Shown: piece after piece, positions 347 through 8,254 of the stretch | Position numbering within the stretch: position 1 is the first letter of the stretch | How the letters are laid out: each line of letters starts with the position of its first letter | NCBI GenBank assembly: GCA_019056805.1 | Contig: DXJG01000002.1 | Coordinates: 523,103-555,102, forward strand | DNA from: Candidatus Baldrarchaeota archaeon | GTDB lineage: Archaea; Asgardarchaeota; Baldrarchaeia; Baldrarchaeales; DXJG01 | Length of the DNA: 32,000 nucleotides | Reading direction: 5' to 3' | Translations under genes and position numbers: made by a program | Notes under the pieces: generated by a model | What the model saw: the letters and a program-made list of their open reading frames with translations, nothing else | The model's database searches: none | What the model was told of the DNA's origin: nothing

Positions 347-682
347 CTACTGAAGAATTCTAACAACATTTTTAAATAATTTAATAATTTCCTTACGAAT
401 TAAATACAGTTTTTCACGCAACCCTGAATCTTCCCTAGAAAAAACAACCACAGATTGAATACTATTTTTCTTAACTAACAATTCTTTCCCTCTAACACTT
501 ATCTTTACAGCGTCTTCACCGCTCTTTAACTTAACATTCAAATCAACTATTGTACCCACCACCGACGATAAAGGTTCTACTTCCCCATATATTATTCCAA
601 TTACCCTATTTTTGTTATGTGAAAGAACTTCATCAAAACTTTCCTCAAATCGAGTTCTAAAATAAACATTAAGCTCCAACAT
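347..682 (-). CDS. Hypothetical protein (~111 aa), probably the last gene of the pepP-cdr-chlI-vWA run
   Basis: ORF 347-706. ATG at 682 follows a GGGGTGA SD. Same strand as the vWA ORF and close behind its stop at 722. No family recognised. Confidence 0.6.
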   Translation of the reverse strand: MLELNVYFRTRFEESFDEVLSHNKNRVIGIIYGEVEPLSSVVGTIVDLNVKLKSGEDAVKISVRGKELLVKKNSIQSVVVFSREDSGLREKLYLIRKEIIKLFKNVVRILQ

Positions 683-721: not shown

Positions 722-2035
722 TCAAATTTTTCCAGTTTTGGCAACAGTTATACTTGTTATTGCTTTTTCAATAGCCTTAGTCATTCTCTCTGGTGATAAA
801 GTTGTTTTAAACAATCCAGTTTTAAAACCATAGTATCTTCCTCGAGTAACTTGCGCTATCCATATTAAGAGGTGTGTGGGAGATATTATGAGTTTTGCAT
901 CCCACTTATCAATATGAACCGGATTAACAACTATAACTGGGATATTTTTCCTTGCCAAAATTTGAGTTGCAGCTATTACATCAGCCTGCGCTGGTGCTGG
1001 AATTTTTTCTCTCAATGATATGTTTAACGGCTGCTTTAATGGTACATTTGCCAAACCATCACTAACTAATACAACTATTGGAATCGTATCAGGATTTCTT
1101 CTTAACTCCTGCGTTAATACCTGTGTAGCTTTTAACAATCCATCAGCTAGAGGTGTACTACCCCCAGCCCTTAACTTGATAATTTTCCTTGCAACTATGT
1201 TAATATTCGTAGTTGGATGAAACACAATTCTAGCTCGTTCCCCTTGTAGAACAATTAAACCTACTTTATCTCTATAACGATAGGCCTTCCTATGCAAAGA
1301 AAAAACAGCTTCAGCAATTGTTTGAAGATGATATACCATACTTTCACTTAAATCCAAAACCAGTAGTATCGTAATTGGAGTCTTATACATCCTAACATTT
1401 GTTCTTAAATCCTGAAGTTCGACCTGGATAGCTAGTTGTTCTGCTAACCGCATTTGACGTAGCGCCGCAACTCTTATCGTTGGTCCAAAAGCTATATCAA
1501 TTGTAGGGCTCTTAGGAATCTCATATCCTACAATTCGACCCTTATGAACAGATGTTACCGCCAAAGCCCTTTTACCAGAAAGATACCTCCTCTTCCTAGC
1601 TTTAACTTTTACATCAAAACCAAATTCAAACCTTTCTTTATGTGACTTAAGTTCTTTAAGCACAGTTTTACCGGGAGCAAAAGGCACTTTCCTAGAGACA
1701 TCTATTGCTGAAAAATCCATCGGAGCGATTTCTACCATAACTTTTGCTTCGTCCCTTTCTTTCTCTTGCCTCCCTCTCAGTATATAATCTTTGGATATTG
1801 TCCGTTTCCAAAGAGCCTTTAACTTTCTAGTAACCCTATTGAAACGACTTGCCTTCGTTTCCTTAAAAATGGAAAGATAAGTTCCTCTCCTAAAAATTTT
1901 CGGCAATTTTTCTTTTTCTACAGCCATCAAAGGAACCAGTGAAAAAATTCTTTGAAATGTAGGCTGCTTATCCGTTGAAATTCCTCGTCTACCTTCTACC
2001 TCAACAGTTGGAACTACTTTCTCCCTACCTTTCAC
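722..2035 (-). CDS. vWA-domain protein, similar to the C-terminal half of chelatase subunit ChlD/BchD
   Basis: MIDAS-type motif VLDLSESM, then GGSTPLADGL and IVVLVSDGLANV, as in ChlD vWA domains. The GTG start has no clear SD, and the frame is open upstream to 2092, overlapping the end of the ChlI-like ORF. Confidence 0.85.
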   Translation of the reverse strand: MKGREKVVPTVEVEGRRGISTDKQPTFQRIFSLVPLMAVEKEKLPKIFRRGTYLSIFKETKASRFNRVTRKLKALWKRTISKDYILRGRQEKERDEAKVMVEIAPMDFSAIDVSRKVPFAPGKTVLKELKSHKERFEFGFDVKVKARKRRYLSGKRALAVTSVHKGRIVGYEIPKSPTIDIAFGPTIRVAALRQMRLAEQLAIQVELQDLRTNVRMYKTPITILLVLDLSESMVYHLQTIAEAVFSLHRKAYRYRDKVGLIVLQGERARIVFHPTTNINIVARKIIKLRAGGSTPLADGLLKATQVLTQELRRNPDTIPIVVLVSDGLANVPLKQPLNISLREKIPAPAQADVIAATQILARKNIPVIVVNPVHIDKWDAKLIISPTHLLIWIAQVTRGRYYGFKTGLFKTTLSPERMTKAIEKAITSITVAKTGKI

Positions 2036-2063
2036 CTTAGCATCAGCTTTTCTTAAAACATAC

Positions 2064-3143
2064 TTACCTTCTCGCTGAACGAAAAAAGCCTTTCATCGAC
2101 CCCATTATTTTTTTGAAAACACTATCTATCTCTTCGGGAGTTGCCGGCTCTTCAAACCCTCCCCGTCTAGTTCTGTGACCCAAAGCAAGCTTTGCTGCAA
2201 TATTAATATCCTCTGGCTCAACCATAGTTCTGCCCTGAAAAGCCGCAAGAGCCCTTGCCGCTTGAACTATAATTATATCAGGTCTATGCCCGTCAACTTG
2301 AAGGATTAAACATAATTTCGCTACAGCCCTTAGAATAGGGTCAGGTACTTGTACACTTGGAAAGATTTCAATGGCTTTCATTATTCTTTCCCTAAGCTCC
2401 CTTTGCTGATCTTCATATCTATTTCTAAACCCTATCGGATCTTCTGAAAACTCCAAATTTCTCTTAATAACCTCAACTCTCAAATCTTCGTCTTGAATTC
2501 CTCGAATCGTAACTGATAAAGGCAAACGATCCAAAAGTTGTGGTCTTAATTCCCCTTCCTCCGGGTTCATGGTTCCCACAAGTATAAAACGAGAAGGATG
2601 GGCAATGGATATACCCTCTCGTTCAACAATATTCCATCCTGAAGCAGCTGCATCTAAAATATCATCCACAATATGATCAGGTAATAAATTAATTTCATCA
2701 ACATACAAAATATTTTGATTAGCCTCTGCAAGAATTCCAGGCTGTAAAGCTCTTACACCTTCTTTTAAAGCTTTTTCTATGTCCAACGACCCTATAACTC
2801 TATCCTCTGTAGCTCCAATAGGCAGTGTAACAACACGCATTTTTCTTCTTTCAACAGGTAGTTTCTCTCCTCTTTCAAATTTCTCTCTACAGACATCACA
2901 CATATTTGTAGGATCTTCCGGATTACAATTGAAAGGACAGTCCTTTACAACTTTTATTTCAGGTAATAAATCTGCCAAAGCTCTTACCACAGTACTTTTA
3001 CCCGATCCTTTTTCTCCCCTTACTAATAAACCTCCTATCTTGGGATTTATCGCATTTAAAATTAAAGCTAATTTCAAGAGATCTTGATCAACTATAGCTG
3101 TAAACGGGAAAACGATTCTTTCTTCTGATAAACTTCTTGACAT
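2064..3143 (-). CDS. Mg/Co-chelatase subunit I-like AAA+ ATPase (ChlI/BchI family)
   Basis: FPFTAIVDQ start, Walker [21 protein letters not shown], Walker [32 protein letters not shown]. The likely start is ATG 3143 (MSRSL), not 3230. Confidence 0.93.
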
Positions 3144-3253
3144 TTTAGACAGTAACCCCCAAATTATAGAAATGAAAAAGGAAATATAAAATATTCGAAA
3201 TCGGAAATAAGCAATCAAGACTTTCAACAATTTACGTGCAATAAATCTAAGAA

Positions 3254-4621
3254 TTACGTCTTCTTTTTCCTTTTTTCCAATTTCCTCATAACTGAATCAG
3301 CTGCTACGATTAGAGGATCCCACACAGGTGATATCGGTGGAGCATAAACAGTTTCCAAAGACAAAAACTCTTCAATTGTCAATTTTCTCAGTAATGCCAA
3401 AGATATAACATTTATTCTTATTGCAGCCCCTTCTTCACCAATTATTTGCGAACCAATGATACGGCCATCTTCAGAATTTACTAGAATTTTAACATAAAGA
3501 GTCTTACTACTAGGGAAATACTCCGGTTTTGTTCTTCCTCTTATAGTTCCAACAATTGCTTTTATATCTCTTTTCTCTGCTTGTTGGCTTGTTAAACCAA
3601 CTGACGCCACTTCATATCCAAAAAGCTTAGTAGTTCTTGTAAGAACGGTTCCATAATAAGTCATTTTTCCCCCAGCAGCATTTATACCAGCTACTTTTCC
3701 TTGTCTCACAGCAACTGTTCCCATCGCAGCTAAAATAGGTTCATTTGTTACAAGATATTTTGTTTCTACACAATCTCCTGCAGCAAAAACATCTTCCACA
3801 CTCGTCTCCATGTACTCGTTTGTTTTTATTCCTCCAGTCTTACCAAGTTCAACACCCATCTTTTGAGCAAAATCCGTATTAGGCTTAACTCCAGTGGAAA
3901 CAACAACAAAATCTCCTGGTATCTCTTCTCCTTCAACAACAACTCCCTTAGCATTTTCATTGCCCATGATTTCTTCTACACGTTTCCCAGTTAACACGGT
4001 AATTCCGTGTTCCTCCATCTTACTCTGCAGGATCCTTGCAAAATCAGCGTCAAGGATGGTGGGTAAAATCTGAGGGAGAAGTTCTACAACAGTAACTTTT
4101 AACTCTAAGTGACGCAGAGCTTCAGCAACTTCAAGCCCGATTAACCCAGCACCAACAATAACAGCACTTCTACTTTTCCTTGCGACATCGTTAATCCTTG
4201 TAGCATCATTTATAGTCTTAAGTGTGAAAACTCTTCCTTTATCAACGCCAGTTATGGGCGGAATCGAAGGAGAACTACCTGTCGCAACTATTAATTTATC
4301 ATAACTTTCCTTCTCCATCTTATCATGCTTTAAATTCTTTATTTCCAGAATTTTTTTATCAGGATCCCCATCTACTGCAACGCAGTTCAACTTCAACCGT
4401 ATTCTCAAAAATTTATCGTACCAAGAAGTAGGATGTTCTATGAGGCTTTTAGGGTTAGGAATTATTTGACTAATAACATAAGGTAAGCCGCATCTTGAAT
4501 ATTCTGGAAACTCTTCGCGATTTATCACTATGATTTCCGCTTTTCTATTTACCTTTCTAGCCCATAAAGCTGCTGAAACACCAGCAGCCCCTCCACCAAC
4601 AACCACAATTTTTTCAACCAA
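3254..4621 (-). CDS. CoA-disulfide reductase / NADH oxidase family flavoprotein
   Basis: FAD motif VGGGAAG, single redox Cys in SRCGLPY, NAD(P) motif [15 protein letters not shown], and C-terminal [13 protein letters not shown] start with an AGGAGAGG SD. Confidence 0.92.
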
Positions 4622-6400: not shown

Positions 6401-8254
6401 GTGAACAAGTTAAAAGACGATCTAAAAACCAAAAAAGTCGGGATAAAAAGACATCCAGAAATAGCATTGATAATTCTCATAGCTGTATTCCTATTAGGTT
6501 CCGCAACCGGCGTAGAAAGAACCATAATTTCCCTATACGCAGAAAACTACGTTACACTAAGCGTTCAATTAGGAGCTATAATATCAGCCTTTGGAGCTTT
6601 CAAAGCAGCCATGGACATGCCAAGCGGCATAATCAGCGACAAAATCGGAAGAAAAAGAGCATTTCTCATTGGTAGTGTAATATATATTTTTGGAGCTATT
6701 ATTCTCGCATATTCAAGATCTTATCTCGAAATTTTAATTGCAAACTGTTTAATTGGAGGAGGTACTGGAACATTTCTTGCAGCTGCAATGATTTCCTTAA
6801 GTGATGTGGGAGGTTACGAAGAAAGAGCTTTTTCTTTCGGATTAATGGAGTTTTCTGTATATGCAGGTTTAAGTGCAGGTGCATTAATAGCAGGATTATT
6901 AGCAGTAATTTACCAGTCGCTTAGAATACCGCTATTCTTCACCGTTGGAATGGCGCTTCTTGTCTTCGCAACGTCAGCCATCTTCATTAAAGAAACTAAA
7001 AAATTTGCTGAGGAAAGTTATGTTTCTAGGATAAAATTATCTCCTAAAAGAAGTTTATCAAAATTTGCTAAAAATCCCGGACTTCTAACTATCTATTTCA
7101 CTGCGCACGTAACAAAAATTGGAGACGGCCTAATATGGGCTTTTCTACCCATATACTTAGCTGAAATACTTCAATTTAATATAAGACAAGTTGGAATTAT
7201 TCAAGGTGTTTTTACAATTGTTTGGGCACTCTCAATGCCTCTAAGCGGTAAAATAAGTGACATTGTTGGCAGAAAAATTCCATGTATCACAGGTCTTCTA
7301 CTTAACGGAATATTCATATTTCTTCTCCTTTGGACTCAAAGTTTCCAAATGATACTCATCTTTGTAATCATGGCTGGAGTCGGTGTAGGTCTATATTACC
7401 CAGTTCTACCCGCTGTTTCAGCAGACGTTGTAAGACCAGAGTTAAAAGGATCAGCACTAGGATTATATAGAAGTCTTCGAGACGCAGGCTATTTCACAGG
7501 CCCAATTCTCCTAGGTCTTATCGTTGACATTTATAATATAGAATTAGCCTTTTCTATGGTTTTTTCCTTATTAATCATTTGTGCAGGAGCTGTATTAGTA
7601 GTTGTTAAAGAAACTAGACCCGGCTGGCCAGCTTTCGAATTCTCCATTAAACACGCCGAGATAATACGTGAAGCCGCAAGAAGAGTAGAATTAGCAGTAC
7701 GCGCTTTCACCGATGGAGACATAGAAACAACAAAACACCTCGTACAAGAAGCAAAAACACTTGAAAGAGAGGCAGACGAAGTCAAAAGAGAAATAATGCT
7801 TAGATTATCCATGGGAGTGTTAGAAGCCCCAGACAGACCTGACTTCCTAAGATTAACAGAACTTGTAGATGATGTTGCTGGATACGTTGTTGGTGCAGGC
7901 CGCAGACTTACTTTACTCGACCCTAAAGACTTCCCCGAAGATATTAAAGAATGTTTCGCCAGATTTTCCAAAGGGGTAACAAAAATCTCAGATCTAGTTA
8001 AACAAGCAATCGAAACCCTGAGAATTAATGTTGAGGAAACTCTTAAGATAGTAGAGGAAATCGAAAAACTAGAAACCGACATGGACGATTTATATCACGA
8101 AATTTCAAGCAAAATCATTAAAATAAGCAACAAAATCAGTACACCAACACTTCTAACCGTTAGAGACTTCATAAACCTAATAGAATTTGCGATAGACACA
8201 GCAGAGGACGCAGGAGACCAAATACGAATGATAGCAATAAAACACTACATCTAA
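6401..8254 (+). CDS. MFS transporter fused to a C-terminal DUF47 (TIGR00153, PhoU-like) domain
   Basis: MFS motif A twice (GIISDKIGRKR, GKISDIVGRKI) across ~400 hydrophobic residues. A soluble helical domain follows with LEREADEVKREI, PDRPDFLRLTELVDDVAG, LETDMDDLY and DTAEDAGD, typical of DUF47. The frame is uninterrupted. Confidence 0.88.
   Translation: MNKLKDDLKTKKVGIKRHPEIALIILIAVFLLGSATGVERTIISLYAENYVTLSVQLGAIISAFGAFKAAMDMPSGIISDKIGRKRAFLIGSVIYIFGAIILAYSRSYLEILIANCLIGGGTGTFLAAAMISLSDVGGYEERAFSFGLMEFSVYAGLSAGALIAGLLAVIYQSLRIPLFFTVGMALLVFATSAIFIKETKKFAEESYVSRIKLSPKRSLSKFAKNPGLLTIYFTAHVTKIGDGLIWAFLPIYLAEILQFNIRQVGIIQGVFTIVWALSMPLSGKISDIVGRKIPCITGLLLNGIFIFLLLWTQSFQMILIFVIMAGVGVGLYYPVLPAVSADVVRPELKGSALGLYRSLRDAGYFTGPILLGLIVDIYNIELAFSMVFSLLIICAGAVLVVVKETRPGWPAFEFSIKHAEIIREAARRVELAVRAFTDGDIETTKHLVQEAKTLEREADEVKREIMLRLSMGVLEAPDRPDFLRLTELVDDVAGYVVGAGRRLTLLDPKDFPEDIKECFARFSKGVTKISDLVKQAIETLRINVEETLKIVEEIEKLETDMDDLYHEISSKIIKISNKISTPTLLTVRDFINLIEFAIDTAEDAGDQIRMIAIKHYI

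Follow-up and report, generated by a model that had tools for sequence, protein, structure and literature searches.

Frameshifted "magnesium chelatase" or chlD genes (fs-chlD) were found in 2013 in prokaryotes including Methanocaldococcus and Methanococcus, and their -1 frameshifting on A-runs has been confirmed with E. coli reporters (PMC3711429, PMC5009743). In these genes an open reading frame (ORF) for a ChlI-like AAA+ ATPase overlaps an ORF for a vWA domain, in that order and at the domain boundary; ribosomes that stay in frame make the small subunit, and those that shift make the medium, ChlD-like one. Shifts of -1 are commoner than +1 among fs-chlD genes, and some carriers have neither the chlorophyll nor the B12 pathway (PMC9227772). 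Cases with a +1 shift are said to exist in the same paper, the supplement of which gives no motifs, and Asgard lineages are not named for fs-chlD in any of these three publications. Here we describe such a locus in Candidatus Baldrarchaeota archaeon, on the minus strand of a stretch of 32,000 nucleotides (assembly GCA_019056805.1, contig DXJG01000002.1, positions 523,103 to 555,102), which is referred to as the window. A ChlI-like AAA+ ORF (ORF1) runs there into a vWA ORF (ORF2) that lies in the +1 frame. Most probably the two are joined by a +1 ribosomal frameshift at UUU_UUU_CGU, in which tRNA-Phe moves from UUU to UUC while a presumably slow CGN codon awaits decoding, so that products of 359 and 806 amino acids are made.

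The order of the two ORFs and their overlap at the domain boundary are the same as in fs-chlD, and so is the predicted outcome, a small subunit by standard decoding and a ChlD-like subunit by frameshifting. Further likenesses are the existence of in-frame fused homologues, the occurrence in archaea, the presence in genomes without the large subunits of chlorophyll or B12 chelatases, and the conservation among homologues of a slip-prone sequence in the overlap, which is TTT TTT CGN here and an A-run in the published genes. The signals differ: those described for fs-chlD act in the -1 direction on A_AAA_AAR or poly-A, often with a downstream structure, whereas the window would use a +1 shift on UUU_UUU_CGN and no structure was detected. 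An initial annotation of the window, made from its letters alone, had noted both that frameshifted chlD genes occur in prokaryotes, which is indeed published (PMC3711429, PMC9227772), and that UUU_CGN is a viral +1 motif. The latter holds for influenza A PA-X (UCC_UUU_CGU) (PMC3498833) and for plant amalgaviruses (PMC5052127). The mechanism proposed for the viruses is a slip of tRNA-Phe in the peptidyl (P) site from UUU to UUC, with a rare CGN codon in the aminoacyl (A) site (PMC3498833, PMC5052127). Core motif, direction and proposed mechanism are the same in the window, and strong RNA structure would be needed in neither case. The viruses infect eukaryotes and are translated on 80S ribosomes, whereas the window holds a cellular gene read by an archaeal ribosome; it also differs in the invariant UUU that precedes the motif and in a 0-frame stop that mostly follows within 0-5 codons.

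Two cellular systems are also comparable. Bacterial dnaX (tau/gamma) likewise makes from one gene, at a set ratio, two proteins that have a common AAA+ N-terminus and join one complex, but there a -1 shift makes the short product, whereas here a +1 shift would make the long one. The fucA1 gene of Saccharolobus solfataricus is, like the present locus, a split archaeal cellular gene expressed as one protein via programmed frameshifting; it differs in using a -1 shift, on A_AAA_AAT, and in having a single functional product (PMC1616953, PMC8211752). A review of 2021 lists fucA1 as the only archaeal frameshift shown experimentally, with +1 frameshifting suggested only for the haloarchaeal virus HSTV-2 (PMC8211752). 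This literature already covers the gene family and the two-subunit logic. The direction of the shift, the U6-CGN signal and the breadth among Asgard archaea seem new as far as checked, the full 2020 catalogue of signals lying outside that check.

The coordinates of the locus are collected in Table 1. ORF1 carries a Walker A motif, a Walker B motif (ILYVDE) and a Cys4 insertion, and its profile matches include AAA_lid_2 (1.4e-17), Mg_chelatase and TIGR02030 (434 bits); ORF2 matches VWA_2. The single fused model TIGR02442, of 641 positions, is divided between the two, with positions 1-320 on ORF1 and 392-614 on ORF2. The residues of the metal ion-dependent adhesion site (MIDAS), D247, S249 and S251, are invariant in alignment A1. 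ORF1 ends in ATG AAA GGC TTT TTT CGT TCA GCG AGA AGG TAA (2096-2064, minus strand). In the vWA frame, +1 relative to it, a TGA just upstream is followed by an open stretch that begins at 2092 and ends with the stop at 724-722, and a shift at TTT TTT CGT would join 354 to 452 residues. Coordinates, product lengths and junction peptide as given in the initial annotation were all exact on re-reading. As read from the sequence, the region upstream of ORF1 is the only initiation signal visible for the two-frame gene. The initial annotation had remarked that GTG 2035, in the vWA frame, has no clear Shine-Dalgarno (SD) sequence, and we likewise found no SD-like purine run before it, in contrast to both flanking ORFs (GGGGGT before ATG 3143 and GGGGTGA before ATG 681).

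Table 1. Features of the two-frame locus, in window coordinates.
Feature	Coordinates	Strand	Evidence
ORF1, 0 frame, ChlI/BchI-like AAA+ ATPase, 359 amino acids	2064..3143	-	ATG 3143, stop TAA 2066-2064; profile matches
Shift site TTT TTT CGT (UUU_UUU_CGU)	2079..2087	-	T6CG invariant in 21/21 +1 loci; T6 in independent contigs
Proposed slip within shift site	P-site UUU 2084-2082 to UUC 2083-2081; slow A-site CGU 2081-2079	-	
Overlap where the frame change must fall	2064..2092	-	First open +1 codon (2092) to 0-frame TAA (2066-2064)
+1 continuation, basic linker and vWA/MIDAS domain	722..2080	-	452 codons, GTT 2080 to stop 724-722; DxSxS at LDLSESM
ORF1 upstream region, putative promoter	3144..3215	-	SD-like GGGGGT 10-15 nucleotides before ATG; A/T-rich TATA-like stretches

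A frame change at a homopolymer calls for a check of the run itself. Logan contigs of three sequencing runs from three other studies (X3, X4 and X5) cover positions 2011-2412 with 0 differing letters and 0 gaps; the independent assemblies retain T6, the run that the initial annotation had wanted confirmed, and none has T5. An assembly slip is excluded because these contigs are identical across T6, and the recurrence of the same site in 21 loci likewise rules out a T5/T6 assembly or homopolymer error. A broken gene, in which a recent one-base insertion or a homopolymer error interrupts what is normally a fusion, could be imagined because the orthologues in three species representatives of the same genus are in frame and the window has, relative to them, one extra base shortly after CGT. 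A copy of the gene in a relative (L011/L044) also has a one-base loss, unrelated to this one, inside the AAA domain. Given the agreement of the three studies, the recurrence of this offset, at these 8 bases, among 21 diverged loci that represent many samples and assemblers, and the fact that both frames are intact and constrained, we regard this explanation as scarcely credible.

The comparison with other Asgard archaea drew on a protein database with contig look-ups, GTDB genomes and JGI metagenomes, and at each locus the frame of the AAA C-terminus was compared with that of the vWA domain. In 21 distinct loci the vWA frame was offset by +1 from the AAA frame; they include 12 species representatives from 5 Asgard families. 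Assemblies from ENA, Logan, JGI and GenBank supplied the sequences, which belong to Baldr-like, Njord, Asgardarchaeum and Promethearchaeota metagenome-assembled genomes (MAGs) and include MAGs labelled Njordarchaeota, Asgardarchaeum abyssi and Promethearchaeota. TTT TTT CGN is present in the AAA (0) frame of all 21, with T, C or A as the third base of CGN, and the 0-frame stop follows 0-5 codons past the site in 20 of them and 31 codons past it in L069. In the relatives L037 and L038 the AAA ORF has gene calls of 359 amino acids, the length of ORF1. An alignment centred on the site shows T6CG as 8 consecutive invariant columns of 2.0 bits each, while nearly all flanking columns are below 1.2 bits; the synonymous positions of the Phe and Arg codons within TTT TTT CGN show no variation.

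The reading of the locus as a +1 programmed frameshift, put forward in the initial annotation, is supported by these results together with the retention of T6 in independent assemblies: the +1 offset is kept, together with TTTTTTCG, in 21/21 split orthologues from at least five Asgard families. A maximum-likelihood tree of the AAA C-terminus and vWA sequences places all +1 loci that it includes (17 of 21) in one clade with support 97/96. Branch lengths within this clade reach about 1 change per site, and several in-frame forms are nested inside it. Because the clade holds all included +1 loci with in-frame forms nested among them, the +1 arrangement looks ancestral to the clade, with at least three reversions to plain fusion.

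Substitutions were counted in the first 24 codons past the site for six close pairs of loci in all three frames. Of the changes in the +1 frame, 25 are synonymous and 17 non-synonymous, compared with 5 and 37 in the 0 frame and 7 and 38 in the +2 frame. Between the window and L037, both differences within the overlap are silent in +1 and residue-changing in frame 0. By these counts, purifying selection acts on the +1 frame right from the first codon past the site. The 21 loci have no start codon in common, either by position or by kind, the first ATG, GTG or TTG of the vWA frame lying anywhere from codon 1 to codon 78 past the site, and the vWA-frame codon at the site itself is GTT, GTG, GTA, GCN, GAT or GAG. 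In every +1 locus the vWA frame opens just 3-14 codons upstream of the site.

These observations bear on the possibility that the locus consists of two separate genes, with the vWA protein started at GTG 2035 or by termination-reinitiation near the ORF1 stop, and with TTTTTTCG kept only for the encoded residues, which both proteins would require. Gene callers divide all +1 loci in this way, a GTG stands directly past the site in six of the 21 and an ATG 6-16 codons later in others, and CobS/CobT-type chelatases do use separate AAA+ and vWA subunits (PMC9227772). The lack of a conserved start argues against this arrangement, most clearly in L067, L068, L061, L081 and L086, where the first possible vWA start lies 42-78 codons downstream, past conserved coding sequence. 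Purifying selection on the +1 frame from its first codon, the short distance over which that frame is open before the site in every locus, and the lack before GTG 2035 of the SD-like element seen at flanking genes point the same way. The synonymous positions of TTT TTT CGN are also fixed in 21 loci, although in the host genome 33% of Phe codons are TTC and 76% of Arg codons are AGR. Finally, close orthologues are in-frame fusions. Two separate genes are, in our view, unlikely.

The codon statistics were obtained from 957 long ORFs of the genome to which the window belongs (1.92 Mb, 91% complete, 35.5% G+C). CGT accounts for 10% of Arg codons (4.8 per 1000 codons) and all CGN for 24%, while AGA alone accounts for 59%. 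UUU-CGN pairs are depleted, with 86 observed and 136 expected (0.63), in comparison with 1.02 for NNT-CGN pairs in general, a depletion that fits a pair that would be generally shift-prone in this host. The site at 2087 is the sole in-frame occurrence of TTT TTT CGN among these ORFs, which, with the recurrence of its first 8 bases in all 21 +1 loci, speaks against a chance motif. Among the only 18 tRNA genes of an incomplete Aragorn inventory there is a single gene each for tRNA-Phe(GAA) and tRNA-Arg(GCG). These features of the genome are compatible with the slip proposed for the viral sites.

Translation of one recoded gene would start from ATG 3143 with the ChlI-like AAA+ module. The majority of ribosomes would read UUU UUU CGU and four more codons and terminate at UAA, releasing the 359-amino-acid ATPase. 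A fraction would halt while peptidyl-tRNA-Phe, with anticodon GAA, occupies the second UUU and the rare CGU is in the A site; tRNA-Phe would then re-pair one base forward on UUC, a full Watson-Crick match, and decoding would resume at GUU in the +1 frame and continue through the basic linker and the vWA/MIDAS domain to the end of the 806-amino-acid ChlD-like protein. As has been proposed for frameshifted chlD genes, one mRNA would in this way give two subunits that share the AAA+ module, and how often the slip occurs would fix their ratio. The two products would presumably assemble with each other and act on a cellular substrate. This account builds on the anatomy of the locus, the accuracy of its sequence, the strict conservation of the site, the coding constraint on the +1 frame and the lack of a conserved start.

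The same two products could arise by transcriptional slippage, if RNA polymerase dropped one U at T6 so that mRNAs with U5 encode the fusion. The site is after all a homopolymer run of invariably six T, and chlD-like genes of two Asgard families (f7 and f21) have A9-A11 sites, and for sites of that kind slippage is an accepted alternative (PMC5009743). Six bases is a short run for productive slippage, and it is never longer in the 21 loci. To our knowledge, documented transcriptional slippage involves runs of about 9 or more. The CG that follows is as invariant as the run itself, which a slow CGN codon in the A site would need and slippage would not, and the genome-wide depletion of UUU-CGN points to a translational effect. 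We consider transcriptional slippage improbable on these grounds and infer that the slip is ribosomal.

A slip on the ribosome could also go two bases back. U6 would permit full re-pairing of tRNA-Phe at -2, the resulting frame is the same as for +1, and in influenza PA-X an experiment was needed to decide between the two (PMC3498833). The product would differ by one extra Phe (GFFFVQR for -2, GFFVQR for +1). In L011, an in-frame relative, the homologous place has FFVQ, with two Phe, and the invariant C after U6 is what re-pairing on UUC in the +1 direction requires. Frameshifts of -2 are generally rare and usually depend on trans-acting factors. A -2 slip is very improbable for these reasons.

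Several points weigh against a programmed +1 frameshift and should be set beside the evidence for it. The rarity of tRNA-Arg would follow from codon usage alone, the Aragorn inventory being incomplete. When the 60 nucleotides past the site were folded in 14 loci and compared with shuffled sequences, no downstream structure was found (mean z -0.3, nothing shared), and the aligned loci have no fixed upstream SD-like stimulator, just a purine-rich coding bias with no invariant block. The GTG found directly after the site in six loci belongs to the codons that gene callers use as starts. Conservation of T6CGN could partly reflect recent descent or a conserved FFR peptide, because in-frame relatives also keep FFR as TTT TTT CGT. 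The efficiency of the frameshift could be low.

Relatives without the frame change help to define the predicted product. In the three same-genus species representatives searched (G001, G002 and G003) the orthologue is a single in-frame ORF of 799-857 amino acids from stop to stop, colinear with ORF1 plus ORF2 across the junction. Their junctions (FFRQGGGRYVL, FFRREGEKYVL and FFRREERTYVL) are colinear with the +1 reading of the window, which has one extra base shortly after CGT. The predicted trans-frame product is matched colinearly by the in-frame loci L008, L009 and L010 of the same genus and by P0005/P0006 (797 amino acids). Because the same-genus orthologues are in-frame fusions, the fused AAA-vWA protein is the predicted functional unit. 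A stand-alone gene of ChlI size was not found in the three congeners, where every AAA match falls in a frame of 657-881 amino acids, and the genome of the window has none besides ORF1.

TTT TTT CGN is kept at the homologous place in a number of in-frame relatives (L008/L041, L009/L042, L010/L043, L016, L017, L063, L064, L096, L098 and L099). The site may act in reverse in such genes, a +1 slip yielding a short ChlI-like subunit. A slip of this kind would hit a stop after 5-15 codons; such distances are ordinary in A+T-rich DNA, and we gave them no weight as a test of reversed polarity. A wider interpretation, which we offer only tentatively and think rather doubtful, is that UUU_UUU_CGN is a recoding cassette of ancestral Asgard origin, that it would be the first +1 programmed frameshift conserved in an archaeal cellular gene, and that it may work in both polarities. 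Split genes would then slip to make the long ChlD-like protein and derived in-frame genes would slip to make the short ChlI-like one.

Other frame types occur in the same gene family. In L019, L024 and L025 (family f7) and in L090, L092, L093 and L097 (family f21) the vWA frame is -1 and the junctions have runs of A9-A11. These loci are by their sequence of the published fs-chlD type, and both slip types would accordingly be found within one phylum. The copy L011/L044, on contig C14 of Asgardarchaeum abyssi AB3033_2, keeps a single frame across the T6 junction (T TTT TTC GTT, FFVQ) and has lost one base inside the AAA domain near L044:2317 (GAT AT-G AAA, where relatives read D-I-E-K); it may be a paralogue in decay, or else an assembly error. 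An intact copy of the +1 type (L034/L047) is also present in this MAG. The genome of the window has a second ChlI-vWA fusion on a different contig, at C15:26116-28359 (L001/L035), with an in-frame, 780-amino-acid open frame. This paralogue is about 40% identical in the vWA part and has no T6CG at its junction.

The initial annotation had called the two products I-type and D-type subunits. Their AAA+ and AAA+/vWA architecture is borne out by the profiles, but the large chelatase subunit CobN/ChlH (PF02514) that would go with such subunits was not found in the 91% complete genome, while controls were positive in 5 of 14 genomes. Neither ORF reaches the NCBIfam equivalog cut-offs: TIGR02442 (putative cobaltochelatase subunit) scores 492.6 bits on ORF1 and 149.1 on ORF2 against a cut-off of 779.45, and TIGR02031 (BchD-ChlD) scores 253 and 100 bits against 499.55. 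The names I-type and D-type are architecture labels only, because no CobN/ChlH was found and the equivalog cut-offs are not reached; the predicted products are ChlI-like and ChlD-like in architecture and do not share equivalog membership. The Cys4 insertion of ORF1 (CPFNC...CDVC) follows Walker A at about residues 95-120 (window 2780-2860, minus strand) and is kept in all aligned relatives. It could be a zinc or iron-sulfur knuckle.

Two different slips, -1 on A-runs and +1 on U6-CGN, would bring one family of AAA+/vWA motors to the same pair of subunits, in organisms without a known large chelatase subunit. A +1 site whose letters do not change across several Asgard families would offer a clean, minimal test object of nine bases that is free of structure. 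It could reveal how a P-site tRNA slips at a slow codon on archaeal, eukaryote-like ribosomes, and its motif is shared with influenza PA-X and the amalgaviruses. There is also a consequence for annotation: because such loci are called as two genes everywhere, the predicted 806-amino-acid ChlD-like protein is missing from Asgard proteomes.

Directly downstream of the recoded gene lies an ORF of 111 amino acids (window 347-681, minus strand) with the strong SD sequence GGGGTGA and no Pfam match. It is found in the same place in L037 and L038 and may be co-transcribed with the recoded gene. A CoA-disulfide-reductase-like flavoprotein (window 3254-4621, minus strand) is encoded between an M24 peptidase gene and the recoded gene, and is absent from this place in L037 and L038. 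Further away, on the plus strand (window 6401-8254), an ORF of 617 amino acids combines an MFS transporter with a C-terminal PhoU_div/PhoU domain, an unusual fusion.

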